The notes beneath the pieces are model-generated. The model did not search any database, was not told the DNA's origin, and saw nothing but the letters and a program-made list of their open reading frames with translations. A DNA stretch of 34,676 nucleotides from a virus (taxonomy: Duplodnaviria; Heunggongvirae; Uroviricota; Caudoviricetes), in the IMG/VR virus record IMGVR_UViG_2537561603_000002; one strand, given 5' to 3'. The position numbers were made by a program, and so were the translations under genes. This document shows positions 4,267 to 31,512 of this stretch, piece after piece (position 1 is the stretch's first letter; each line of letters starts with the position of its first letter).

Positions 4267-5120
4267 GCACCATCCTGAAATGGGCGGGTAATAAAACCAC
4301 CATTATGTCCGAACTGAAAAAATACCTTCCTGCTGGCACGCGACTGGTTGAACCTTTCGCGGGTTCTTGTGCTGTGATGATGGAGACGGATTACCCCAGC
4401 TATCTGGTTGCGGATATTAATCCTGATTTAATCAACCTCTATAAAAAGGTTGCTGCTGATTGTGAGGCGTTTATATCTCGTGCCAGAGCTTTATTTGAGG
4501 AAGCAAACAGAGAGGTGGCTTATTACAACATAAGGCAGGAGTTTAATTACTCCACTGAAATTACTGATTTCATGAAAGCGGTATATTTTCTGTATCTCAA
4601 TCGTCATGGTTACCGTGGGCTATGTCGCTATAACAAGAGCGGGTATTTCAACATTCCCTACGGTAATTATAAAAATCCGTATTTCCCTGAAAAAGAAATT
4701 CGCGCATTTGCAGAGAAAGCCCAGCGGGCAACGTTTATCTGCGCCAGCTTTGATGAAACGCTGGCGATGTTGAAGGCGGGGGATGTGGTGTATTGCGATC
4801 CGCTTTATGACGGTACGTTTTCCGGCTATCACACTGATGGCTTCACTGAAGATGACCAGTATCACCTGGCATCCGTTCTTGAACATCGATCATCTGAAGG
4901 TCATCCGGTCATTGTTTCTAACAGTGACACATCCCTGATCCGTTCGCTGTATCGCAATTTTACTCACCACTACATCAAGGCAAAACGCAGCATCGGCGTG
5001 GCAGCTGGTGAGAGTAAATCTGCAACAGAAATCATCGCTGTTTCCGGGCCGCGCTGCTGGGTAGGATTTGATCCTTCGCGTGGCGTGGATTGTTCCGTCG
5101 TGTACGGAGTGCGTGCATGA
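4263..5120 (+). CDS. dam: DNA adenine N6-methyltransferase (Dam-like, orphan)
   Basis: N-terminal SAM-binding motif (ILKWAGNK...VEPFAGS) and catalytic DPLY motif ([11 protein letters not shown]), as in Dam/T4-Dam class MTases. No adjacent restriction enzyme. Confidence 0.8.
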
Positions 5121-7531
5121 GCCATGCTGATATGAACAACTGCAGCGGCTTTAACGAGGTCGCCGCAGCATTCTCATGGAACAGCCCGAAAAAGGCCATT
5201 AACCCTTATCTGGACCCGGCGGAAGTTGCGCCGGTTTCTGCGCTTTCAAACCTGATCACTCTGTACGCTGCCGATAACGAGCAGGAACAACTGCGCCGCG
5301 AGGCACTGAGTGATCAGGTCTGGGAGCGTTATTTCTTTAATGAATCCCGTGATCCTGTCCAACGCGAAATGGAGCAGGATAAGCTAATTAGCCGGGCAAA
5401 GCTGGCGCATGAGCAGCAGCGTTTTAATCCAGACATGGCCATTCTGGCGGACGTCAACGCCCAGCCTTCCCATATCAGCAAGCCGCTGATGCAACGTATT
5501 AAATACTTCAGCAGCCTGGGCAGGCCAAAGGCTTATTCCCGCTATTTGCGTGAGACGATTAAGCCATGCTTGGAACGACTGGAGCATGTACGCGACAGTC
5601 AGCTATCCACTTCTTTTCGCTTTATGGCAAGCCATGAAGGGCTGGACGGCCTGCTGATCCTGCCTGAAATGAGTCAGGATCAGGTGAAACGCCTGTCCAC
5701 CTTGGTAGCTGCGCATATGAGCATGTGCCTTGATACAGCTTGTGGCGATTTGTATGCCACCGATGATGTTACGCCAGAAGAAATCCGCAAGACATGGGAA
5801 AAGGTGGCAGCGGAAACCCTGCGTCTGGATGTTATCCCGCCTGCGTTTGAGCAACTTTGTCGGAAAAGAAACCGCCGTAAACCCGTGCCTTATGAACTCA
5901 TTCCGGGTTCGCTGGCGCGTATGTTATGCGCCGACTGGTGGTATCGGAAATTATGGAAGATGCGTTGCGAATGGAGGGAAGAGCAGTTGCGTGCTGTTTG
6001 CCTGGTCAGCAAAAAAGCATCTCCCTATGTCAGCTATGAAGCCGTGATGCATAAACGTGAGCAGCGCCGTAAGTCGCTGGAGTTTTTCCGTTCTCATGAA
6101 CTGGTGAACGAAGACGGCGACACGCTGGATATGGAAGACGTGGTAAACGCCAGCAGCAGCAACCCTGCGCATCGCCGCAATGAGATGATGGCCTGTGTTA
6201 AAGGTCTGGAGCTTATCGCGGAAATGCGTGGTGACTGCGCCGTTTTCTACACCATCACCTGTCCGTCACGTTTCCATTCCACGCTAAATAACGGCAGGCC
6301 CAACCCGACCTGGACAAATGCGACGGTAAGACAAAGCAGTGATTATCTGGTCGGTATGTTTGCTGCATTTCGTAAGGCGATGCACAAAGCCGGATTACGC
6401 TGGTATGGCGTGCGGGTGGCTGAGCCGCATCATGACGGTACAGTTCACTGGCACCTGTTGTGTTTTATGCGCAAAAAAGATCGCCGCGCCATTACTGCTT
6501 TGTTGCGTAAGTTTGCCATTCGTGAAGACCGCGAGGAGCTGGGTAATAACACGGAACCACGCTTTAAGTCTGAGCTGATAAACCCGCGCAAAGGTACGCC
6601 AACAAGCTACATCGCGAAATACATCAGTAAGAACATTGACGGGCGTGGTCTGGCTGGCGAGATCAGCAAGGAAACGGGTAAATCCCTGCGTGATAACGCC
6701 GAATACGTTAATGCCTGGGCGTCTTTGCATCGTGTTCAGCAATTCCGCTTCTTTGGCATTCCGGGGCGTCAGGCTTACCGTGAACTGCGATTGCTGGCTG
6801 GTCAGGCGGCAAGGCAACAGGGGGACAAAAAAGCAGGTGCGCCGGTACTGGATAACCCGCGCCTTGATGCCATCCTGGCTGCCGCTGATGCTGGCTGTTT
6901 TGCCACCTACATCATGAAGCAGGGCGGCGTACTGGTTCCCCGCAAATATCACCTCATCAGAACCGCTTATGAAATCAACGAAGAGCCGACCGCCTATGGC
7001 GATCACGGTATTCGTATTTATGGCATCTGGTCACCCATTGCAGAGGGCAAGATCTGCACTCATGCGGTGAAGTGGAAAATGGTTCGTAAGGCCGTTGACA
7101 TTCAGGAGGCGGCAGCCGACCAGGGCGCTTGCGCCCCTTGGACTCGTGGCAATAACTGTCCCCTTGCTGAAAATTTGAACCAGCAGGAGAAAGATAAATC
7201 AGCTGATGGGGACACCAGAACGGACATTACCTGCATGGATGACAAGGAGTTGCACGATTATCTGCACAGTATGAGCAAAAAAGATCGCCGGGAACTGGCA
7301 GCAAGGTTACGCCTGGTGAAACCGAAACGGCGTAAAGACTACAAACAGCGAATTACAGACCATCAGCGACAGCAGCTTGTCTATGAACTGAAGTCCAGAG
7401 GATTTGATGGCAGCGAGAAAGAGGTCGAGTTGCTCCTTCGCGGTGGCAGTATTCCGTCAGGAGCAGGCCTGCGTATCTTCTATCGGAACCAGCGTCTGCA
7501 GGAGGATGATAAATGGCGGAACATGTATTAA
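5117..7531 (+). CDS. A: Replication initiation protein A (rolling-circle HUH endonuclease)
   Basis: About 804 aa from ATG 5117 (ATGA overlap with dam stop); HUH motif ([13 protein letters not shown]) and downstream Tyr motif ([11 protein letters not shown]) typical of P2 gpA / 186 RepA. Confidence 0.85.
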
Positions 7532-8245: not shown

Positions 8246-8986
8246 TCAGTTTTCTTTGAATTTTTCACTTAATCGTTTCGTCAATACTTCGACAGATTCT
8301 TTGCGACCGGAGAACAAGTCATTGACGACGTACTCCATAATCTCAAAAGCATCCTCAATGTCTTTGACTTTTACTTCATCGTAGGTATGGCTTCCGGCAT
8401 TTCCTAAAAATTTAATTGCCATAAGAGGTCTTGAAAACGATCCGTATAATTCAGGTAGCATCCCTAAACGGTGGTGTAGAGTTATGCGTTTGCCATTATC
8501 ATTACGTTCAGCTACATCCATAGCGGTTAGCATTCTTTCAACTGAAATTCGAATTAGGTTTGCTGCTGCGCCAGGCTGTATTAGGAAAATGGAAAATGAG
8601 GCTTCAAGCGGTTCGGTAATTTCTTCTGGGCATTTTTCAGGTATTTCGAAAGGATGCAGTGATGGGTAAAAGGTGAAAGGTCTGTGCCATTGATAGTACT
8701 CAATATCATTTCTTTCTTCATCCCAACCTTGTTCCCATCCACTCTTACCAGTACAGGCCACAACTTCACCACATTGCATTCTTGAACAGCGGGCCATGCA
8801 ACTGAAAATAGATGAATCCATTTCTAGTTCAAACCAATCTTCACTGCGGAATTTTCGGGTATCATGTGTGTCATACGAGACGAAACTTTCTTTAATGATC
8901 TGTAGGGTTTTCTGATTGCAGTTAGGGCAGGGCCACTCAACCTGCATATCGTGGAAAAACGCACCAGAGAGCTTGTGCACAGTCAT
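8246..8986 (-). CDS. Cargo hypothetical protein (246 aa): N-terminal Cys-rich (zinc-ribbon-like) region plus C-terminal alpha-helical domain; candidate defence protein
   Basis: Reverse-strand ORF with SD gagga upstream of ATG 8986; CPNC...CxxxCxxxxC...C cysteines; C-terminal region holds an R-x4-H motif (KRITLHH); lower GC than backbone; in the A-to-Q variable region. Confidence 0.55.
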   Translation of the reverse strand: MTVHKLSGAFFHDMQVEWPCPNCNQKTLQIIKESFVSYDTHDTRKFRSEDWFELEMDSSIFSCMARCSRMQCGEVVACTGKSGWEQGWDEERNDIEYYQWHRPFTFYPSLHPFEIPEKCPEEITEPLEASFSIFLIQPGAAANLIRISVERMLTAMDVAERNDNGKRITLHHRLGMLPELYGSFSRPLMAIKFLGNAGSHTYDEVKVKDIEDAFEIMEYVVNDLFSGRKESVEVLTKRLSEKFKEN

Positions 8987-9356: not shown

Positions 9357-10157
9357 ATGATCTTTCTAAGTCATAATCACCGTGACAAAAGGTTTGTAAG
9401 TGTTATAGCGGAAAAACTAGCAGATGTTTATGGGCGTGATAACGTATTCTACGATTCTTGGTCTATCCAACCCGGAGAGGGTATTATTGACAAGATGAAT
9501 TTAGGAATGGAGAATGTATCGTTCTTTTTCTTTTTTGTCACAGAAAATAGCTTGGCAAGTAACATGGTAAAAATGGAATGGCAAAATGCTTTAATTAAGG
9601 CATCGTCCGGGAAGTGTAAATTTATACCAATACGTTGCCAGAATATATCCTTGCCTGCTCTGCTTACTCAAACGCTATATATTGATCTTTATTCGTATGG
9701 GATCGATGTGGCAATAAGACAAATTATAGATGTCATTAATCAACAAAATACGTATATTCCTAATCCTGAGAAGTATTCAAACCTCTCCTATGATATTAAG
9801 GATGATGATGGGGGTAAGATAGTGAAATTATCAGCAATGGATTTTTTAGAACCAATTGCTGATTTTATGATGATTATGGATAATACAATTAAGCATGATG
9901 ATGTTGTTGTTATGGTCAATGGAGAAAGCTCATTCACTCAGGGGTTTATTGAAAATGCATCTTTAGAAAATGGTATGAAAGTAAGTGGTGCCACTGTTGG
10001 CCTAAATCGGGGGTTAACACCAACGATGCCAATGTATGTTTCTCTTAGGTTAAAGGATGGTTCACCTTTGAATATATTTGCGGTGCTACATCGAGTAAGT
10101 ACCGAGCGTTATGCTCCTATACCACATAAAGCCGATGATGCCTTTAGAGTAAAATAA
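9357..10157 (+). CDS. TIR-domain protein (about 266 aa) with C-terminal domain of unknown function; candidate defence effector or sensor
   Basis: N-terminus MIFLSHNHRDKRFV...FYDSWSIQPGEGI...VTENSLASNMVKMEWQNAL follows the TIR pattern (FxSHxxxD, SW, conserved Glu in a W..E motif). AT-rich; alternative start at 9345; stem-loop terminator downstream. Confidence 0.6.
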   Translation: MIFLSHNHRDKRFVSVIAEKLADVYGRDNVFYDSWSIQPGEGIIDKMNLGMENVSFFFFFVTENSLASNMVKMEWQNALIKASSGKCKFIPIRCQNISLPALLTQTLYIDLYSYGIDVAIRQIIDVINQQNTYIPNPEKYSNLSYDIKDDDGGKIVKLSAMDFLEPIADFMMIMDNTIKHDDVVVMVNGESSFTQGFIENASLENGMKVSGATVGLNRGLTPTMPMYVSLRLKDGSPLNIFAVLHRVSTERYAPIPHKADDAFRVK

Positions 10158-18578: not shown

Positions 18579-19316
18579 TCATTCATTGTCAAATAATTTT
18601 TGCTCTTTCAATATTTGTGTCGAAAAATTATTGCTTATTAATTTTACAAGCTTGCCGCACAAATTAAATGAATATCTAAAATAATCTAAGTCAGGGATGA
18701 GGTATTCTTTTTCTTCAGAGGATATTCCTGCCTCTAATAATTTTTTTTCATATCTTTGGTCCTTCACCCAATTATTATGGACTCCTGTGTCTCGTCTTGC
18801 TTTAATTTCAATGTATTGTTTTAAGAGATGTTCTATTTTCTTTTTGTCTAAGCATAAGAGTTTGCATAATTTATTGATGTATTCTTTGGGTGATCCAAAT
18901 GTGAGACTCGCGACTCCTTCGTTGACTAGATAGTCAAAAAGTTCATCTTCAGATAATGACTTAAACACCCCATAATCACACTTAATTTTATTTAGTTTTT
19001 CTGGATTGATCCTGAAGGTCAACTTCATGATTTCAATAATGTAATCTTCAAATGCTGAAACAAGCGAACTAAAGCACAATGATGGCATATGTTTTGTTAT
19101 TAAATCATGCCGTATTCCTTTATCTGAGATTTCAGGTGAATGTTTTTCCAGAAAGCATTCAAGATTTGTATAAGCCTCATAAAGCTGAGGGTTAGTTTCC
19201 TCATTGGCGTGAGAGATGGCAATGTTTTGAAATATAATTGTTCTGAATAAAATATCAGCTTTAATAAAATATGATGATGTGATTTTATCCAGGAAGAGAT
19301 AATTATCGGAGTGCAT
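18579..19316 (-). CDS. Cargo hypothetical protein (245 aa), AT-rich, antisense to the late operon; candidate abortive-infection/defence protein
   Basis: ORF with SD gaggaa 5 nt before ATG 19316; markedly AT-rich and Lys/Asn/Ile-rich, unlike flanking GC-balanced tail genes; inserted where P2 has S and V adjacent. Contains an R-x4-H motif (RRDTGVHNN), weak evidence. Confidence 0.55.
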   Translation of the reverse strand: MHSDNYLFLDKITSSYFIKADILFRTIIFQNIAISHANEETNPQLYEAYTNLECFLEKHSPEISDKGIRHDLITKHMPSLCFSSLVSAFEDYIIEIMKLTFRINPEKLNKIKCDYGVFKSLSEDELFDYLVNEGVASLTFGSPKEYINKLCKLLCLDKKKIEHLLKQYIEIKARRDTGVHNNWVKDQRYEKKLLEAGISSEEKEYLIPDLDYFRYSFNLCGKLVKLISNNFSTQILKEQKLFDNE

Positions 19317-21239: not shown

Positions 21240-21837
21240 TCTGCTGCCACCGGGTTCAACTTCACTGGAGCGCCGACTGGCGCAAACCTGTAGCGGGATT
21301 TCTGATTTGCAGGTGCCGCTGCGTGACTTGTGGAATCCGGCTACCTGTCCGGTCAGCTTCCTGCCTTATCTCGCCTGGGCGTTCTCTGTGGATCGCTGGG
21401 ACGAGGGCTGGACAGAAAGCGTCAAACGCCAGGTAGTGAAGGATGCTTTTTATATTCATCAGCATAAAGGAACCACCAGTGCCGTGCGGCGGGTGGTGGA
21501 ACCGTTCGGATTCCTGATCTGCATTATTGAGTGGTGGCAGACCGGAGAAACACCGGGCACGTTTCGCCTGGATATCGGCGTGCAGGACCAGGGCATCACT
21601 GAAGATACCTATCTGGAACTTGAGCGACTGATAAGCGATGCCAAACCATGTAGCCGCCACATGATCGGCATGTCCATCAATCTGCAGACCAGCGGCCCGC
21701 ATTGGGTGGGAGCCGCCAGCTATCTTGGCGAAGAAATCACGATCTATCCGTATATCAACGAAACGATTATTTCCGGTGGCACCGCGCATGAAGGCGGGGC
21801 GGTCCATGTTATTGACACAATGAGAGTGAATCCATGA
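21232..21837 (+). CDS. I: Baseplate protein I
   Basis: 201-aa ORF overlapping J stop, preceding tail fibre gene. Confidence 0.75.
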   Translation: MNSLLPPGSTSLERRLAQTCSGISDLQVPLRDLWNPATCPVSFLPYLAWAFSVDRWDEGWTESVKRQVVKDAFYIHQHKGTTSAVRRVVEPFGFLICIIEWWQTGETPGTFRLDIGVQDQGITEDTYLELERLISDAKPCSRHMIGMSINLQTSGPHWVGAASYLGEEITIYPYINETIISGGTAHEGGAVHVIDTMRVNP

Positions 21838-23243
21838 GCACAAAATTTTATACCCTGCTGACGGATATTGGCGCGGCGAAACTTGCCAGCGCCGCCGCGC
21901 TCGGTGTGCCGCTAAAAATTACCCATATGGCGGTGGGCGATGGCGGCGGAGTATTGCCAACGCCGGACGCAAAGCAGACGGCACTGGTAAATGAGAAACG
22001 CCGGGCTGCGCTGAATATGCTTTATATCGACCTGCAGAACAGCAGCCAGATTATTGCTGAACAGGTGATCCCTGAAAACGAGGGCGGTTGGTGGATACGT
22101 GAAGTGGGCCTGTTTGATGAGTCAGGGGCATTGATTGCCGTGGGCAACTGCCCGGAAAGCTATAAGCCGCAACTGGCTGAAGGCAGCGGGCGCACCCAGA
22201 CCGTGCGTATGGTGTTGATTACCAGCAGCACGGACAATATCACCCTGAAAATCGACCCTGCCGTAGTGCTGGCAACCCGCAAGTATGTGGATGACAAGGC
22301 ACTGGAGCTGAAGGTGTACGTGGATGACCAGCTGGCAAAACACCTTGCCGCACCGGACCCGCATTCACAATATGCACAGAAAGAAAGTCCGACGTTTACC
22401 GGGACACCAAAAGCGCCAACGCCTGCGGCAGGCAATAACACCACGCAGGTTGCGACCACTGCGTTTGTTCAGGCGGCACTGACGGCTCTTATTAATGGTG
22501 CGCCAGCCACGCTGGACACACTGAAAGAAATAGCCGCAGCCATTAACAATGACCCGAAATTCAGTACCACCATTAATGATGCGCTGGCACTCAAAGCGCC
22601 GCTGTCGAGTCCTGCACTTACCGGGACGCCGACAGCCCCCACGGCGGCACAGTCGGTCAACAATACACAGATTGCCACCACGGCTTTTGTGAAATCGGCG
22701 ATTGCGGCAATGGTGGGTTCTGCACCTGCTGCACTGGATACACTGAACGAACTGGCGGCGGCGCTGGGAAATGACCCGAACTTTGCCACGACAATGTTGA
22801 ATGCTCTGTCAGGTAAACAACCGCTGGACAATACGCTGACTAATTTGAGTGGAAAGGATGTAGCAGGTCTTCTCACATACCTTGGTTTGGGAGAAGCGGC
22901 TAAAAGGAATGTAGGTACAGGGGCGAATCAGATACCTGATATGAGCCTGTTCGCGTCAATTAATACCGTAACGGCTGCTGCGCAAAAATTTCCGTCTGGA
23001 TTAATTTTACAGTGCGGTCAGTTGAATGGTGCCCCGAATGTATCTTCAACATACGGGATGAGGTTTCCGATGACGTTCTCAAGAGTCATTGCTGTCGTAG
23101 TTACATTGAACGTTACTGGCGCGGCAGGGCAGCCGACTGTATCGGCGACAAGTGTCCAGAACACTGGATTTAATATTACGGTGTCGCCCGGTTCAGGATA
23201 TGGTTCATCTGCTGATGCGTATTACATTGCAATGGGATATTAA
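21834..23243 (+). CDS. H: Tail fibre protein H (469 aa) with internal tandem repeat
   Basis: N-terminus is P2-H-like ([39 protein letters not shown]); two ~75-aa repeats (...[12 protein letters not shown]... / ...[11 protein letters not shown]...). Confidence 0.8.
22390..22850. repeat. Tandem ~225-bp repeat (two copies) inside tail fibre gene H
   Basis: Protein-level repeats [55 protein letters not shown] and [55 protein letters not shown]; coordinates approximate. Confidence 0.5.
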
Positions 23244-23247
23244 CGAA

Positions 23248-23667
23248 ATGTCATATTTTTATTCTGCATCGACAAACGGATTTTATTCGACTGAATTTCA
23301 CGGCACCAATATTCCTGATGATGCAGTGGAAATCTCGGAATCAGAGTGGAAAACACTGATTAATTCACAGAGTGTAACAAAAATGATTACCTGTGGTGAG
23401 AACGGTCACCCTGTCATTGTTGACCGTCCTTCTCCAACACCAGAACAATTAGCCTTAATAAATAATGAAAAGAAATCTGCACTGATAGCAGAGGCAACGA
23501 ATGTAATAGCGCCGCTTCAGGATGCGGTTGATTTAGATATGGCAACAGATGATGAAACGAAACTGTTACTGGCATGGAAAAAATATCGCGTGCTATTGAT
23601 GCGTGTTAATACTTCAACAGCACTCGATATTGAATGGCCTACGTCTCCGGCAGTTCAGGCCCGATGA
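23248..23667 (+). CDS. G: Tail fibre assembly protein G (Tfa)
   Basis: ATG 23248 directly after H; conserved Tfa-type sequence ([13 protein letters not shown]... ; ...[27 protein letters not shown]). Confidence 0.75.
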
Positions 23668-24232
23668 CATCCGGCGCGGTGCTGGTATCTGTTGCCGTCA
23701 CCGCATCAATGTAATCCAGCACAGCGTTAAGCCGGGTGGTTTCTGTTTGCGACAGTTTTCGCCCGGTCTGCAATTTCAACTGAATCAGACTGATGGAAGC
23801 CATAGCAGCATCAATCAGTGACTGGCGCTGTACTTCTGCCGTTTCTACTGCGGCACCGTGTTGTGCCTCAGTATCTGTCACCCATTTCTCACCATCCCAT
23901 TTATCGTATGGCGTTAACGGTGAAAGCGTGACATAACCGTCTTTGATGGCACCGATATAATCCACAGTAATAGCTGCGCCATTTTCTGTTGAGTAAACAG
24001 TCTCATTGCGATGGTCTTCTTCATGGCTCCATCCCTTGCCCGTAAATACTGCCACTTTCCCCGGAATGTTTTCGCCCGGGGCAATACCAGTGGAACAGGC
24101 GGGCATACTTACACCAGTATTAATATATTCATCAGAGCAGCCCATATACTCAGATGTTTCAGCATCATAATAAAAACAACGCATATCGCCCGGCACTGTA
24201 GCCAGCCCATTTTCATCAAAAACAGGTTTCAT
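23639..24232 (-). CDS. Second, inverted tail fibre assembly gene (tfa'), remnant of an invertible tail-fibre segment
   Basis: 197-aa reverse-strand ORF with Tfa-like N-terminus ([29 protein letters not shown]) and C-terminus ([19 protein letters not shown]); convergent with and overlapping the 3' end of G. Confidence 0.65.
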
Positions 24233-24257
24233 TATTTAGCCCTCACCAGAAAGTTAA

Positions 24258-24515
24258 ATGCAATATTTTTTTTATGTCATGGGTGCTCTGGCTGAAATGG
24301 AACGCGAACTGATAGTTGAACGCACCAGGGCAGGGCTGGCTGCAGCTCGTGCCAAAGGCAGAGTAGGTGGACGCCGTACTAAGTTGACCACCGAACAGTG
24401 GGCACAGATTGGACGTTTACTCGAGGCCGGAGAATCAAGACAACGTATTGCACTGATTTTTGATGTGGGCGTTTCTACCATTTATAGAAAATTTCCGGCG
24501 AATAAGAGCAATTAA
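24258..24515 (+). pseudogene. 5'-truncated Gin/Pin/Hin-family serine DNA invertase (C-terminal ~80 aa only)
   Basis: GALAEMERELIVERTRAGLAAARAKGRVGGRR...ALIFDVGVSTIYRKFPA matches the C-terminal HTH region of Gin/Pin/Hin invertases; the N-terminal catalytic domain (active-site Ser) is absent. Confidence 0.7.
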
Positions 24516-24571
24516 TCGCTCTGAATCAGCATTATTTTGATTATCCCTGCAAGTAGACAAATACCCTCATT

Positions 24572-24589
24572 TTGTATGAATAACTGTAC
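24572..24589. promoter_or_regulatory. Ogr-type late promoter element (TGT-N12-ACA) for the FI-FII-E-T-U-D operon
   Basis: tgtatgaataactgtaca, centred about 55 bp upstream of the expected transcript start near FI ATG 24667. Confidence 0.5.
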
Positions 24590-24666
24590 AACTACACTTA
24601 GCTGTTTGTCAGGCACAATCACTTCAACATAGGGCGAAGCCTAATCCAATCAGGAGGTTCGCCACT

Positions 24667-25839
24667 ATGGCTCAGGATTACCACCACGGGGTGCGCGTTG
24701 TTGAAGTCAACGAAGGCACCCGATCCATTACCACGGAGAGCACCGCCATCGTGGGCATGGTCTGCACGGGCGATGATGCCGATGCAAAAATGTTTCCTCT
24801 TAATAAACCCGTACTGATCACTGATGTGCTGACTGCCAGCGGTAAAGCGGGTGAGTCCGGCACGCTGGCCCGTTCGCTGGATGCCATCGCTGACCAGGCA
24901 AAACCAGTGACCGTTGTTGTGCGTGTGCCGCAGGGTGAAACGGAAGAAGAAACCACGACCAATATCATCGGCGCAGTGACTGCTGAAGGTAAAAAAACAG
25001 GCATGAAAGCCCTGTTATCTGCCCAGACACAGCTCGGCGTTAAACCGCGCATTCTCGGCGTGCCAGGTCACGATAACAAAGCCGTTGCTACTGAGTTGCT
25101 GAGCGTGGCGCAAAGCCTGCGTGGGTTTGCCTACCTGTCAGCGTATGGCTGCAAGACGGTACAGGAGGCGATCACTTACCGTGAAAACTTCAGCCAGCGC
25201 GAAGGAATGCTGATCTGGCCCGACTTTACTGGCTGGGACACGGTGCTGAATGCCGAAGCAACGGCATATGCCACCGCTCGTGCGCTTGGTCTGCGTGCCA
25301 AAATTGATGAGCAGACCGGGTGGCACAAAAGCCTGTCCAACGTGGGCGTGAACGGTGTCACCGGAATTTCTGCAGATGTGTTCTGGGATCTGCAGGACCC
25401 GGCAACCGATGCAGGTCTGCTTAACCAGAACGATATCACCACGCTTATCCGCAAAGACGGTTTCCGCTTCTGGGGTTCCCGCTGTCTGGGCGATGATCCG
25501 CTCTTTGCCTTCGAAAACTACACCCGCACGGCGCAGGTGCTGATGGACACGATGGCAGAAGCACACATGTGGGCGGTGGATAAACCGCTTAACCCGTCGC
25601 TGGCCCGCGACATTATTGAAGGTATCCGCGCCAAAATGCGCAGCCTGGTCAGTCAGGGCTATCTCATTGGTGGTGATTGCTGGCTGGATGAGTCGGTGAA
25701 CGACAAAGACACGCTGAAAGCCGGAAAACTCACCATCGACTATGACTACACGCCAGTGCCGCCACTTGAAAATCTGATGCTGCGCCAGCGCATCACCGAT
25801 CAGTACCTGGTGAATTTCGCCAGCCAGGTCAGCGCGTAA
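24667..25839 (+). CDS. FI: Contractile tail sheath protein FI
   Basis: 390 aa (P2 FI 396 aa); SD aggagg before ATG; canonical position. Confidence 0.85.
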
Positions 25840-26721: not shown

Positions 26722-26855
26722 CGGTTGACGATCTGGTGGCTGATATCGCCACCATCTTTCACTGGCCGCCATCCGTTACTGACGTTATGCCGCTGACCGA
26801 AGTGCTGGAATGGCGGTATAAAGCGATTCAGAGAAGCGGGGCCAACGATGAGTGA
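26419..26855 (+). CDS. E': E+E' fusion by programmed -1 translational frameshift at TTTTTTG (26676-26682)
   Basis: Slippery heptamer T-TTT-TTG in the E frame; the -1 frame stays open to the TGA at 26853-26855 and encodes ...SLTVDDLVADIATIFHWPP...EWRYKAIQRSGANDE, P2-E'-like. Confidence 0.6.
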
Positions 26856-29800
26856 TAATAACCTGCGCCTGCAGGTCATTCTTAATGCGGTTGACAAACT
26901 CACCCGCCCATTTCGATCTGCGCAGGCCAGTTCAAGAGAACTGGCTGCTGCTGTCAAAAAATCCCGCGATGCAATAAAGCAGCTTGATCAGGCCGGGAGC
27001 AGTCTGGACAGCTTCCGAAAGCTGCAGGCAGAAAATCAGAAATTAGGCGACAGGCTGAACTATGCCCGCCAGCGTGCCAATTTGCTCAGTCAGGAACTGG
27101 GAGCGATGGGGCCGCCTTCGCAACGTCAGGTTGTCGCTCTGGGCCGTCAACGGCTGGCTGTTCAGCGCCTGGAAGAACGCCAGAAAAAGCTGCAGCAGCA
27201 GACGGCGCTTGTGCGTGCAGAACTTTATCGTGCTGGTATTTCAGCTAATGATGGCGCCAGTGCGACGGCCCGCATTACCCGTGAAACGATGCGTTATAAC
27301 AGGCAGCTTTCTGAGCAGGAAGCGAGGTTACGACGTGTCGGGGAGCAACAGCGAAAAATGCACGCCGCCCGGGGGGCTTACGTCAGGCGTCTTGAGGTAA
27401 GGGATCGTATTGCAGGTGCTGGAGCCACCACCACGGCGGCAGGGCTGGCAATGGGCGCGCCAGTGATGGCGGCAGTAAAAAGCTATACCAGCATGGAAGA
27501 TGCCATGAAAGGTGTGGCAAAGCAGGTCAATGGTCTGCGTGACGATAATGGCAACCGCACTGCACGTTTTTATGAAATGCAGGATGCCATCAAGGCTGCC
27601 AGCGAACAGTTGCCGATGGAAAACGGTGCTGTGGACTTCGCCGCACTGGTTGAAGGTGGTGCGCGCATGAACGTCTCAAACCCTGATGACAGCTGGGAAG
27701 ACCAGAAACGTGACCTGCTGGCCTTCGCCAGTACGGCTGCGAAGGCGGCAACAGCCTTTGAGCTGCCAGCGGATGAACTGTCAGAAAGTCTGGGGAAAAT
27801 CGCCCAGCTCTACAAAATACCTACCCGCAATATTGAACAGCTCGGCGATGCGCTGAACTATCTGGATGATAACGCCATGTCGAAAGGGGCGGACATCATT
27901 GATGTGATGCAACGTCTGGGCGGTGTGGCTGACCGTCTGGATTATCGTAAAGCGGCGGCACTGGGTTCCACCTTTCTGACACTGAGCGCTGCGCCGGAGG
28001 TTGCAGCCAGTGCAGCAAACGCGATGGTGCGTGAATTGTCCATTGCCACCATGCAAAGCAAGAGTTTCTTTGAAGGGATGAATCTGCTGAAACTCAATCC
28101 TGAAGTGATTGAAAAGCAGATGACGAAGGATGCGATGGGAACTATCCAGCGTGTGCTGGAGAAGGTGAACGCACTGCCGCAGGACAAGCGTCTGTCTGCC
28201 ATGACCATGTTGTTTGGTAAAGAGTTTGGCGATGACGCAGCGAAACTGGCAAACAACCTGCCGGAACTGCAGCGCCAGTTAAAACTGACAGCGGGCAATG
28301 ATGCGCTCGGCTCCATGCAGAAAGAATCCGACATTAACAAGGATTCACTTTCTGCGCAGTGGTTGCTGGTCAAAACCACTGCGCAGAATACCTTCAGCAG
28401 CCTGGGCGAAACGCTGCGCCAGCCGCTGATGGATATTCTGTACACGGTGAAAAGCGTCACGGGGGCGTTGCGTCGCTGGGTGGAAGCTAACCCGGAACTG
28501 ACGGGCACACTGATGAAAGTAGCAGCGGTTGTGGCTGCCGTTACCGTGGGCCTCGGCACCCTGGCTGTGGTGTTGGCTGCAGTGCTGGGGCCGCTGGCAG
28601 TGATCCGTCTGGGATTCTCTGTGCTGGGTATCAAAACGTTACCTTCCGTTACGGCAGCAGTAACACGAACCAGCAGCGCGTTGTCCTGGCTGGCTGGCGC
28701 TCCACTGGCAGTGCTGCGACGCGGGCTTGCTTCATCGGGTAACGCAGCGGGTTTACTTACTGCGCCGTTGTCGTCTTTGCGCCGTATGGCATCACTGACG
28801 GGAAATGTCCTGAAAACTGTAGCAGGTGCGCCGGTTGCACTATTGCGGTCCGGTTTATCCGCTTTACGTGCTGTTGCTGTGATGTTTATGAATCCTCTGG
28901 CGGTACTGCGCGGTGGACTGGCTGCCGCAGGCGCGGTGCTTCGTGTGCTGGCATCTGGTCCGCTGGCGATGCTGCGCGTTGCCCTGTATGCCGTATCTGG
29001 TCTGTTAGGTGCTCTGCTCAGTCCGATAGGTCTTGTGGTTACTGCACTGACGGGTGTGGCGCTGGTTGTCTGGAAATACTGGCAACCCATCACCGCATTT
29101 CTCGGTGGCGTGGTGGAAGGATTCAAAGCGGCGGCAGGTCCCATCAGTGCAGCATTCGAACCACTTAAGCCTGTGTTTCAGTGGATTGGCGACAAAGTGC
29201 AGGCGCTGTGGGGCTGGTTTACTGATCTGCTGACGCCCGTTAAGTCGACCTCTGCTGAACTGCAGAGCGCAGCGGCAATGGGGCAACGATTCGGGGAGGC
29301 ACTGGCGGAAGGACTGAATATGGTCATGCATCCGCTGGACTCCCTGAAATCCGGCGTATCCTGGTTGCTGGAAAAACTCGGCATTGTCAGTAAAGAGGCC
29401 GCAAAGGCAAAACTGCCGGAAAGCGTGACGCGTCAGCAACCTGCGACGGTGAATGCAGACGGCAAAGTGATGATACCATCGGGTGGTTTTCCGTCATGGG
29501 GATATGGCTTTGCGGGGATGTATGACAGCGGCGGCTATATCCCGCGCGGGCAGTTTGGCATCGTCGGTGAAAACGGGCCTGAAATTATCAACGGCCCGGC
29601 AAATGTGACCAGCCGGAAAAATACAGCTGCACTGGCTGCCGTTGTTGCCGGAATGATGGGCGTTGCTGCCGCGCCTGCAGAGCTTCCACCGTTACATCCT
29701 TTGGCACTTCCCGCGAAAGGCGGCGAAGCGATGGTGAGTCGTGCAGCCACTGTGCCGCCCGTTCAACGGATTGAGGCACCGACGCAGATCATCATTCAGA

Positions 29801-29925
29801 CGCAGCCAGGACAAAGTGCGCAGGATATTGCGCGGGAGGTGGCCCGCCAGCTTGATGAACGTGAACGCAGGCTGAAGGCAAAAGCCAGGAGTAACTACAG
29901 CGATCAGGGGGGATACGACGCATGA
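26848..29925 (+). CDS. T: Tail tape measure protein T
   Basis: 1025-aa ORF with coiled-coil N-terminal part and Gly/Ala-rich hydrophobic central repeats; after E/E' as in all P2-like tails. Confidence 0.85.
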   Translation: MSDNNLRLQVILNAVDKLTRPFRSAQASSRELAAAVKKSRDAIKQLDQAGSSLDSFRKLQAENQKLGDRLNYARQRANLLSQELGAMGPPSQRQVVALGRQRLAVQRLEERQKKLQQQTALVRAELYRAGISANDGASATARITRETMRYNRQLSEQEARLRRVGEQQRKMHAARGAYVRRLEVRDRIAGAGATTTAAGLAMGAPVMAAVKSYTSMEDAMKGVAKQVNGLRDDNGNRTARFYEMQDAIKAASEQLPMENGAVDFAALVEGGARMNVSNPDDSWEDQKRDLLAFASTAAKAATAFELPADELSESLGKIAQLYKIPTRNIEQLGDALNYLDDNAMSKGADIIDVMQRLGGVADRLDYRKAAALGSTFLTLSAAPEVAASAANAMVRELSIATMQSKSFFEGMNLLKLNPEVIEKQMTKDAMGTIQRVLEKVNALPQDKRLSAMTMLFGKEFGDDAAKLANNLPELQRQLKLTAGNDALGSMQKESDINKDSLSAQWLLVKTTAQNTFSSLGETLRQPLMDILYTVKSVTGALRRWVEANPELTGTLMKVAAVVAAVTVGLGTLAVVLAAVLGPLAVIRLGFSVLGIKTLPSVTAAVTRTSSALSWLAGAPLAVLRRGLASSGNAAGLLTAPLSSLRRMASLTGNVLKTVAGAPVALLRSGLSALRAVAVMFMNPLAVLRGGLAAAGAVLRVLASGPLAMLRVALYAVSGLLGALLSPIGLVVTALTGVALVVWKYWQPITAFLGGVVEGFKAAAGPISAAFEPLKPVFQWIGDKVQALWGWFTDLLTPVKSTSAELQSAAAMGQRFGEALAEGLNMVMHPLDSLKSGVSWLLEKLGIVSKEAAKAKLPESVTRQQPATVNADGKVMIPSGGFPSWGYGFAGMYDSGGYIPRGQFGIVGENGPEIINGPANVTSRKNTAALAAVVAGMMGVAAAPAELPPLHPLALPAKGGEAMVSRAATVPPVQRIEAPTQIIIQTQPGQSAQDIAREVARQLDERERRLKAKARSNYSDQGGYDA

Positions 29926-30407
29926 TGATGGTGCTGGGATTGTACGTGTTTATGCTGCGCACCGTGCCGTATCAGGAACTGCAGTATCAACGCAGCTGGC
30001 GACATGCGGCAAACAGCCGGGTAAACCGTCGTCCGTCCACGCAGTTTCTGGGACCGGAAAACGATATGCTGACGCTTTCCGGTGTTCTTATGCCGGAGAT
30101 AACAGGCGGCAGGCTGTCGTTGCTGGCACTGGAGCAGATGGCAGAACAGGGGAAAGCATGGCCCCTGATTGAAGGCAGCGGCACGATTTACGGCATGTAT
30201 GTGATTGAGGGACTGAATCAGACTAAAACGGAGTTTTTCCGCGACGGTATGCCGCGCCGGATTGAGTTCACCCTGTCGCTAAAACGGGTGGATGAATCCC
30301 TGTCCGATATGTTCGGTGATCTCAGTACTCAACTGAATAATCTGCAGGACACGGCAACGTCTGCTTTAAGCGATATCAGTAAAACGGTGGGAGGGCTGCT
30401 GTCGTGA
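29922..30407 (+). CDS. U: Tail protein U
   Basis: 161 aa (P2 U 159 aa), overlapping T stop. Confidence 0.8.
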   Translation: MMMVLGLYVFMLRTVPYQELQYQRSWRHAANSRVNRRPSTQFLGPENDMLTLSGVLMPEITGGRLSLLALEQMAEQGKAWPLIEGSGTIYGMYVIEGLNQTKTEFFRDGMPRRIEFTLSLKRVDESLSDMFGDLSTQLNNLQDTATSALSDISKTVGGLLS

Positions 30408-31512
30408 ATTTCAGCTCTGAACTGCTTAACAAAGGCAACAAAACTCCGGCATTCAGCATCAGTGTTGAGGGCAGGGATATCACCACTGTGCTGGACAACC
30501 GCCTGATGGGGCTTACGCTGACGGATAACCGGGGCTTTGAAGCGGACCAGCTTGATCTGGAGCTGGACGACGCTGATGGAAAAATCGTGCTGCCGCGCCG
30601 TGGTGCGGTCATTACGCTGGCGCTGGGCTGGAAGGGACAGCCGCTTTTCCCGAAAGGGGCATTCACGGTGGACGAGATTGAACACACTGGCGCACCGGAC
30701 CGCCTGACCATCCGGGCGCGAAGTGCTGATTTTCGGGAAACGCTGAATACCCGCCGTGAAAAATCGTGGCACAAGACCACGGTCGGGGAAGTGGTGAAGG
30801 AAATAGCTGCGCGGCACAAACTGAAGATGGCACTGGGTAAAGACCTGTCGGATAAGCCCGTGGAACATATAGACCAGACCAATGAGAGTGACGGCAGTTT
30901 TCTGATGCGGCTGGCGCGCCAGTACGGTGCTATTGCGTCGGTGAAAAATGGCAATCTGTTATTCATCCGGCAGGGACAGGGCAAAAGCGCCAGCGGTAAA
31001 CCTCTGCCGGTGATCACTATCACACGCAAGGACGGCGACAGTCACCGCTTTACCCTGGCAGATCGCGGAGCCTATACGGGCGTAATTGCCAGTTGGTTGC
31101 ATACCCGCGAACCCGCGAACCCGCGAAGAAAGAAAGCACCACGGTGAAGCGTAAGCGCAGGACCGCAAAGCAGAAGAAAGAGCCGGAAGCGAAGCAGGGC
31201 GATTACCTGGTGGGTACGGATGAAAACGTGCTGGTACTTAATCGCACTTATGCCAACCGGAGCAACGCCGAACGGGCAGCGAAAATGCAGTGGGAACGCC
31301 TGCAACGCGGCGTTGCATCATTCTCGCTACAACCGGCGGAAGGGCGGGCAGATCTCTACACAGAAATGCCTGTGAAGGTCAGTGGCTTTAAACAGCCGAT
31401 AGATGATGCGGAATGGACCATTACGACTCTGACGCATACCGTCAGCCCGGATAACGGTTTTACGACCAGTCTGGAGCTTGAAGTGAGGATTGATGATTTC
31501 GAAATGGAATGA
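30404..31512 (+). pseudogene. D: Tail protein D (late control gene D) interrupted by a frameshift in an 8-bp tandem repeat (ACCCGCGA x3 at 31103-31126)
   Basis: Two ORFs (30404-31147 and 31093-31512, different frames) together cover a gpD-length protein; deleting one 8-bp unit gives one continuous ~366-aa ORF (…HTREPAKKESTTVKRKRR…). Confidence 0.65.

Follow-up and report, generated by a model that had tools for sequence, protein, structure and literature searches.

A probable relic of a Gin/Pin-type invertible tail-fibre switch, presumably lost by one illegitimate deletion, in an Elveevirus-type prophage of Escherichia coli

Between the tail-fibre genes and the tail sheath gene of a P2-like prophage lie a second tail-fibre assembly gene on the opposite strand and, beyond it, the 3' end of a serine invertase gene, an arrangement that raises the question of whether a host-range switch once operated here and of how it came to be lost. 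A sequence-only reading of this DNA had proposed that a deletion froze a formerly invertible switch. Our results agree with that proposal: one crossover site is left, there is no catalytic domain, and a single gap separates the locus from intact modules. We conclude that this locus of an Elveevirus-type prophage is very probably what remains of an invertible tail-fibre switch of the Gin/Pin type, and that the switch was lost by one deletion, probably an illegitimate one.

The window, by which we mean the whole stretch of 34,676 nucleotides that was analysed, contains a P2-like E. coli prophage with host genes at its flanks. Over its whole length, it is 99.98% identical to the chromosome of E. 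coli Rb-23, in a span that runs from the prophage integrase beside rcdA to grxA. The prophage is of the P2-like, Elveevirus type and is integrated between rcdA and ybjL. Its late tail genes follow one another on the plus strand in the order V, W, J, I, H, and tfa, and the slot of interest is bordered on the right by the tail sheath gene FI (24667..25839, plus strand), whose product has Pfam sheath domains and is 67% identical to P2 FI. The intergenic stretch 5' of FI (24516..24666, plus strand), kept in all intact relatives, was left intact by the deletion described below. A TGT-N12-ACA dyad, which can be read directly in the sequence upstream of FI (24573-24590), is separated from the FI start by 94 nt; in P2, the corresponding distance of the annotated activator site of the F promoter is 91 nt. 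We predict a promoter role for this region. The slot had been assigned to the position of P2 Z/fun, and this holds as synteny, given that fun(Z) occupies the same map position in P2, from G to FI and upstream of the F operon promoter. The likeness ends there, however: the two loci share no sequence similarity (P2 Fun(Z) had no tblastn match in the window at E 10), and the window appears to have the relic of an inversion module where P2 has a lysogenic-conversion gene.

The tail-fibre gene H (21834..23243, plus strand) encodes a protein of 469 aa, with an N-terminal Phage_tail_fib domain (Pfam, E 6.6e-64), a C-terminal Gp53-like_C domain (E 1.6e-12) and 49% identity to P2 H over residues 1-394. 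The gene is made of a constant part, Hc (21834-22869), and of a variable C-terminal part, Hv, which is the one now expressed (22896-23243). The boundary between them is occupied by a 26-bp, gix/pix-like site of 12-2-12 layout (22870..22895), which reads TTCTCACATACC TT GGTTTGGGAGAA and has an equivalent at the equal place in H of the ML35 prophage, phage Cartapus, the LP50-1 prophage and p13P477T-2. In a comparison of the window H with Klebsiella P2-like phages, homology ends at query base 1062-1063 (22895-22896 of the window), a break that coincides with the end of the crossover site, as expected of a constant/variable boundary.

Residual gix/cix-like crossover sites had been suggested as a check, both in H and near 24233-24260, and the two places gave opposite answers. 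We scanned the 34.7-kb window with a position-weight matrix derived from Mu gix and from the sites of the relatives, on which real sites score 25-37. With the matrix built without it, the site in H, intact over its 26 bp, scores 34.4, and the next best 26-mer of the window 6.7. Near 24233-24260, and likewise elsewhere in the window, neither pattern, half-site nor matrix searches revealed a second site: the full right-site pattern gave 0 matches in the window with up to 3 mismatches, and a half-site search of the window returned the H site and chance-level matches only (4 found, 2.7 expected). Whereas an inversion switch has two inverted 26-bp sites, as in the relatives, the window has a single, orphan one.

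The tail-fibre assembly chaperone that follows H, the P2 G-like tfa (23248..23667, plus strand), is the expressed copy. It has 139 aa when counted from the ATG at 23248 (PGAP places the start at 23215), matches Caudo_TAP with an E value of 1.3e-31 (109.9 bits), is 49% identical to P2 G in its C-terminal part and carries a RefSeq annotation in strain Rb-23. Converging on it with an overlap of 29 nt is the second gene, tfa' (23639..24232, minus strand), an intact open reading frame of 197 aa that is known in RefSeq as WP_000805530.1. A lack of similarity to Tfa proteins on formal alignment had been named as grounds for abandoning the inversion scenario. The match of tfa' to Pfam Caudo_TAP PF02413 (E 2.3e-24, 86.5 bits) is instead clearly above the gathering cut-off of 22.1 bits, so that both tfa and tfa' belong to this family and the description of 23639-24232 as a full-length, opposite-strand second tfa gene stands. 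Moreover, tfa' equals in length its homologues in cassettes from which the alternate fibre exon H' has not been lost. A search with a 367-nt query, composed of the H' 3' end and the N-terminal half of tfa', identified the cassette, at no less than 80% coverage, in 684 genomes of E. coli, for the most part with 90-99% identity.

Next to tfa', the alternate fibre exon had been described as missing. This is true of nearly all of H' and has to be corrected for its end, since the stop codon and the last 11 codons (NIAFNFLVRAK*) survive at 24232..24267 on the minus strand. This remnant is identical through window 24268 to the H' 3' end of CAU16175 (E. coli), and it contains the ribosome-binding sequence of tfa', GAGGG. 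In tblastn searches of the window with H' proteins, the 11-codon tail was all that was found. An inversion module has two fibre exons, each with its own tfa, in opposite orientations; in the window, the Hv-tfa pair is complete and the H'-tfa' pair consists of tfa' plus 11 codons of H', making tfa' an intact but orphaned gene whose partner exon is gone.

The last component of the slot is the remnant of a serine invertase (24267..24515, plus strand), which comprises the end of helix E and the HTH DNA-binding domain. A chance ATG at 24258, with no good Shine-Dalgarno sequence 5' of it, opens an 85-aa reading frame (24258-24515, plus strand) that matches HTH_7 (E 2.9e-15), covers just positions 112-144 of the 145-position Resolvase catalytic-domain profile, and aligns to residues 102-184 of Mu Gin (PDB 3uj3) with an E value of 2.5e-30. 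Its counterpart in three close relatives, whose invertases have 188 aa, is the stretch of residues 104-185, with 78 of 82 residues identical, and the remnant is 58% identical to Gin over residues ∼104-185. A catalytically competent member of this family has an N-terminal domain with the active-site serine within VRVSTxxQ; in the window, the catalytic serine region, which reads MLIGYVRVSTNDQ... in the relatives, is absent, and tblastn with a relative's intact invertase and with Gin detected no invertase N-terminal domain in any frame. The possibility that re-inspection of the frames would uncover an intact invertase is thereby answered in the negative, and the earlier description of a Gin/Pin/Hin-type invertase reduced to its C-terminal HTH part is confirmed, with residues 104-185 of 188 present and the catalytic domain lacking. 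PGAP annotates the remnant similarly in RefSeq, as "recombinase family protein, incomplete, missing N-terminus."

The remnant also carries changes of its own. The three intact invertases are mutually identical over residues 104-182; the remnant has His106Tyr in both lineages that carry it and, in the window, Pro141Thr at a proline kept in all relatives, and the window's stop codon comes three codons early. Though small in number, these changes are consistent with relaxed constraint, and the C-terminal part of the invertase gene is a pseudogene.

Intact modules of this type are found in the E. coli ML35 prophage, in the LP50-1 prophage, in Escherichia phage Cartapus (OV696611; genus Elveevirus, family Peduoviridae) and, with a frameshifted invertase, in p13P477T-2, and their I-H and FI flanks are 94-98% identical to those of the window. 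The order in the slot is H, tfa, tfa' (minus strand), the H' C-terminal exon (minus strand) and an invertase gene of 567 nt (plus strand). Each relative has two 26-bp sites in inverted orientation, one inside H (TTCTCGCATACC TT GGTTTGGGAGAA) and the other immediately 5' of the invertase gene (TTCTCCCAAACC AA CGTTTA[A/T]GAAAA), and these sites share their 12-2-12 layout and conserved bases with gix at the annotated G-segment boundaries of the Mu record. In such a module, a serine invertase encoded just 5' of FI would recombine the two inverted sites; inversion would swap the fibre C-terminus, Hv or H', that is joined to the constant part of H and, with it, the cognate chaperone, tfa or tfa', that follows in the late operon. 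For P2-like E. coli prophages, inversion has been demonstrated by sequencing and PCR (PMC4272514).

Two of the records that we compared have peculiarities of their own. With the same P2-like tail module, p13P477T-2 (CP019275.1) is a circular record of 37.4 kb under a plasmid label, and it may represent either a phage-plasmid or a prophage that was excised or circularised. In the related prophage of the enteropathogenic E. coli E2348/69 (EPEC; NC_011601.1, 873380-885513), the whole V-W-J-I-Hc block has the opposite orientation with respect to invertase-FI. There, H stops precisely at the crossover site (1062 nt), gene S is cut short, and the invertase is preceded by a 385-aa hypothetical gene. 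The block is flanked by two hybrid-looking sites, at 352-377 and 5111-5136 of that region, which read TTATGCTAAACG TA GGTATGTGAGAA and TTCCAAGTAACC TA CGTTTATGAAAA, and the whole has the appearance of a large, aberrant rearrangement that took place at the crossover site of H.

Alignment to intact modules had been proposed as one way to examine the inversion scenario, and a four-way alignment shows that the window differs from them by one internal deletion. The gap is the only one in the window, both of its end-points lie inside genes, and the module is collinear with its intact counterparts on either side of it. The gap opens 33 nt upstream of the H' stop codon and closes at invertase codon 104, a stretch of about 0.82 kb on the scale of LP50-1 and of about 0.86 kb on that of ML35. 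It removed H' except for its last 11 codons, the invertase-proximal site, the promoter region upstream of the invertase gene and codons 1-103, including the catalytic serine; the anatomy of the relic, the end-points of the deletion and the loss of the second site are thus established. The classical systems Hin, Gin and Cin have their Fis-dependent recombinational enhancer in the 5' part of the recombinase gene, and the window has lost the corresponding 5' 309 nt of its invertase gene.

The deletion junction (24266..24273) is a run of 8 T with a microhomology of 2 nt (TT). The left parent, GCAATATTT and then, past the break, CGCGG, is identical to the window through 24268, the right parent, CGTTTCTTTTTTCATGTC, is identical from 24267, and the window itself reads GCAATATTTTTTTTATGTC. 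A single illegitimate deletion with both breakpoints in this T-run would account for the fusion of invertase codon 104 to the 11 final codons of H'. The two parental sequences come from different genomes, the best left cassette with H' being that of a separate decayed prophage. The exact pre-deletion parent was not found in the genomes searched, the best intact right flank having 97.6% identity. At 24273, the window has T where all intact genes have C, which turns CAT (His) into TAT (Tyr) at the codon that corresponds to His106 of Gin and His107 of Hin; in the simplest reading, this C-to-T change is a later substitution or a part of the deletion event.

This tyrosine is also a clue to another mechanism, in which the invertase itself made the deletion between secondary (quasi) crossover sites, perhaps as an enhancer-independent, hyperactive variant. 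The remnant has TAT where all intact relatives have CAT, and its tyrosine falls at the position of Hin H107Y, an activated mutant (PMC4817059); in addition, the central dinucleotide of the sites in this family is AA/TT, and the junction lies in a T-run. Against this, the parental junction sequences are unlike crossover sites, with scores of -9.7 and -13 on the matrix that gives 25-37 to real ones. A tyrosine codon in an otherwise intact gene occurs in none of the 710 E. coli genomes that have this stretch of the invertase (the best match, at 98.8%, has one mismatch), and the substituted base abuts the T-run, which makes it simpler to see it as part of the junction or as a later pseudogene change. 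We therefore judge a deletion made by the invertase to be very improbable. Both the dissimilarity of the junction to a crossover site and its microhomology of 2 nt argue for illegitimate recombination and against invertase action, and we favour a microhomology-mediated illegitimate deletion as the probable mechanism.

Is the allele real? Invertible segments can mislead assemblers, and the junction sits in a homopolymer, so that one might suspect an assembly or sequencing artefact such as a collapsed inversion or a misjoined repeat. The same junction, 8-T run and TAT included, is however present in four independently sequenced complete E. coli genomes from Japan, the USA and elsewhere (Rb-23, TUM14697, 1002W03 and SCU-115), and also in a metagenomic viral contig of 32 kb from IMG/VR that is 99.99% identical over the 9.6 kb compared. 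Furthermore, a collapsed inversion would leave the unique 5' half of the invertase gene in place. We consider that an artefact has next to no chance of being the explanation. Over a 1.6-kb query spanning the module, Rb-23, TUM14697 and 1002W03 are 100% identical to the window and SCU-115 98.3%; one junction shared by the four genomes and the IMG/VR contig demonstrates that the allele is real and of single origin. It is also rare: of 2754 genomes with a match to some part of the module, 4 have it, and a junction 31-mer had no match in GTDB contigs (one genome per species). The five sequenced copies of the allele all have one and the same orientation.

The comparison of the window with SCU-115 gives some insight into what happened to the allele afterwards. 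To the left of the junction, 6 of 3167 positions differ, and to the right, 80 of 2434. The divergence rises from 0.2% to 3.3% within ∼20 nt of the junction (24267 onward), making the junction a mosaic boundary as well, as would be expected if fibre cassettes were exchanged with the conserved invertase and FI region serving as the right homology arm. The presence of one frozen module in two right-hand backgrounds implies that recombination took place after the deletion and that the allele has persisted.

Further decay is visible elsewhere in the prophage. Gene D (late control D/tail protein, 30404-31512) is split into two reading frames: an 8-bp unit, ACCCGCGA, is present three times in the window (∼31095-31118), compared with twice in the intact D of ML35. 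This triplication is common to Rb-23, TUM14697 and 1002W03 and absent from SCU-115. Since the lesion in D is confined to three near-identical genomes, the deletion in the fibre module is older, and the prophage of the window has decayed further since; barring a reversion of the repeat by slippage, its tail formation is probably defective. The tape measure gene (26848-29925), by comparison, is intact in the window and encodes 1025 aa; the Rb-23 copy has a 1-nt deletion at window 28587 and is annotated as frameshifted. Either the two copies truly differ here, or the Rb-23 assembly contains a homopolymer sequencing error.

As it stands, the segment has a single site and lacks a catalytic domain in cis. 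It is therefore incapable of inversion and locked with Hc-Hv and tfa expressed, and in the absence of a partner site in cis, it contains nothing that an invertase supplied in trans could invert. Collinearity with intact modules marks it as the descendant of a functional switch, which was probably once active in this lineage.

Could the leftovers of the module be functional, with tfa' serving as an accessory chaperone or adhesin component, or the HTH fragment, produced by late-operon read-through and bound to crossover sites, as a regulator or a dominant-negative inhibitor of related invertases? The reading frame of tfa' is intact and has kept its ribosome-binding sequence, the fragment has an open reading frame with an ATG at 24258 that is co-directional with the late operon, the allele persists in two mosaic backgrounds, and Pin-family invertases can act in trans on other prophages (PMC12529663). 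These arguments are outweighed for each of the two candidates. The late operon is the only known transcription of the region and tfa' is antisense to it; consensus matches for a tfa' promoter numbered 5, against 3.4 expected by chance, and the minus-strand promoter-like matches at 24612-24583 and 24560-24531 thus occur at chance-level frequency. The fragment has acquired Pro141Thr (in the window), His106Tyr and an end three codons early, its ATG is not preceded by a good Shine-Dalgarno sequence, and PGAP calls it a pseudogene. Finally, the rarity of the allele noted above speaks against a function of either kind. A function of the leftovers is therefore very unlikely, and we consider tfa' to be probably silent. 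Synonymous and non-synonymous differences between tfa' and its homologues (22:16 to 22:18, compared with 17:11 for the LP50-1/CAU16175 pair) gave no positive sign of decay in this gene, the counts being uninformative.

The leftovers would also be active if either the orphan site in H were a substrate for Pin-family invertases supplied in trans by other prophages or a translated HTH fragment occupied crossover sites. Use of the orphan site would lead to large inversions or deletions between prophages, and an HTH fragment produced by read-through of the late operon would disturb the inversion switches of co-resident or superinfecting phages. We have no positive support for this scenario; conserved residues are substituted in the fragment, the allele is rare, and we assign only a very small probability to it.

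How does the relic of a switch compare with known systems? Elveevirus-type modules, such as those of Cartapus, ML35 and LP50-1, are its closest counterparts: they share with it the slot, the flanks, the crossover site in H and the C-terminus of the invertase, but the window is without H' (bar 11 codons), the invertase-proximal site and invertase residues 1-103. ML35 has, in addition, the same expressed Hv-tfa pair, whereas the N-terminal half of the window's tfa' comes from another cassette, of the LP50-1/CAU16175 type. With the classical G/Gin system of Mu, C/Cin of P1 and P/Pin of e14, the common features are a constant 5' part of the fibre gene, two 3' exons each with its own tfa, an adjoining serine invertase and 26-bp crossover sites of 12-2-12 layout. 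Unlike Mu G/Gin and P1 C/Cin, the module of the window is located in a P2-type tail cluster and is non-functional, with one site and the catalytic domain deleted.

Other decayed inversion modules are known. Partial pin genes are present in the cryptic prophages of E. coli K-12. The module of p13P477T-2 has an 8-bp gap that frameshifts the invertase, CAU16175 is a prophage remnant beside IS421 with an invertase that lacks its C-terminus, and H' is annotated as partial in LP50-1. Each of these other copies bears a lesion of its own; what distinguishes the window is one clean deletion that took site and catalytic domain together and left the flanking late genes untouched. This is an ordinary, well-understood kind of prophage decay, and RefSeq/PGAP already flags the recombinase as partial. 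The significance of the case lies mainly in annotation and interpretation, and it opens no new question. In practical terms, the prophage is unable to alternate its tail-fibre specificity, and it would be a mistake to take the "recombinase" of the window for a functional invertase or to use it as a marker of phase variation. The locus provides a fully reconstructed case of the loss of a host-range switch, in which a single deletion takes both a site and the catalytic domain, and it illustrates that an allele frozen in this way can be maintained and can reach a second phage background through recombination.

Two regions of the prophage outside the fibre module appear to hold cargo. Between the replication gene and the portal gene, a location that corresponds to the accessory/defence gene region of P2-like phages, lie two cargo genes, at 8246-8986 (minus strand) and 9357-10157 (plus strand). 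One encodes a DUF4145 protein with a weak match to PADLOC PD-T7-4 (E 1.6e-5), and the product of the other has a TIR domain (TIR_2, E 3.9e-23) and weak matches of the TIR-NLR and ThsB-like kinds. The pair may constitute an anti-phage module. A 245-aa reading frame with no Pfam or PADLOC match (18579-19316, minus strand) lies between the tail-completion gene and the baseplate gene V, and its position suggests that it too is inserted cargo (a moron).
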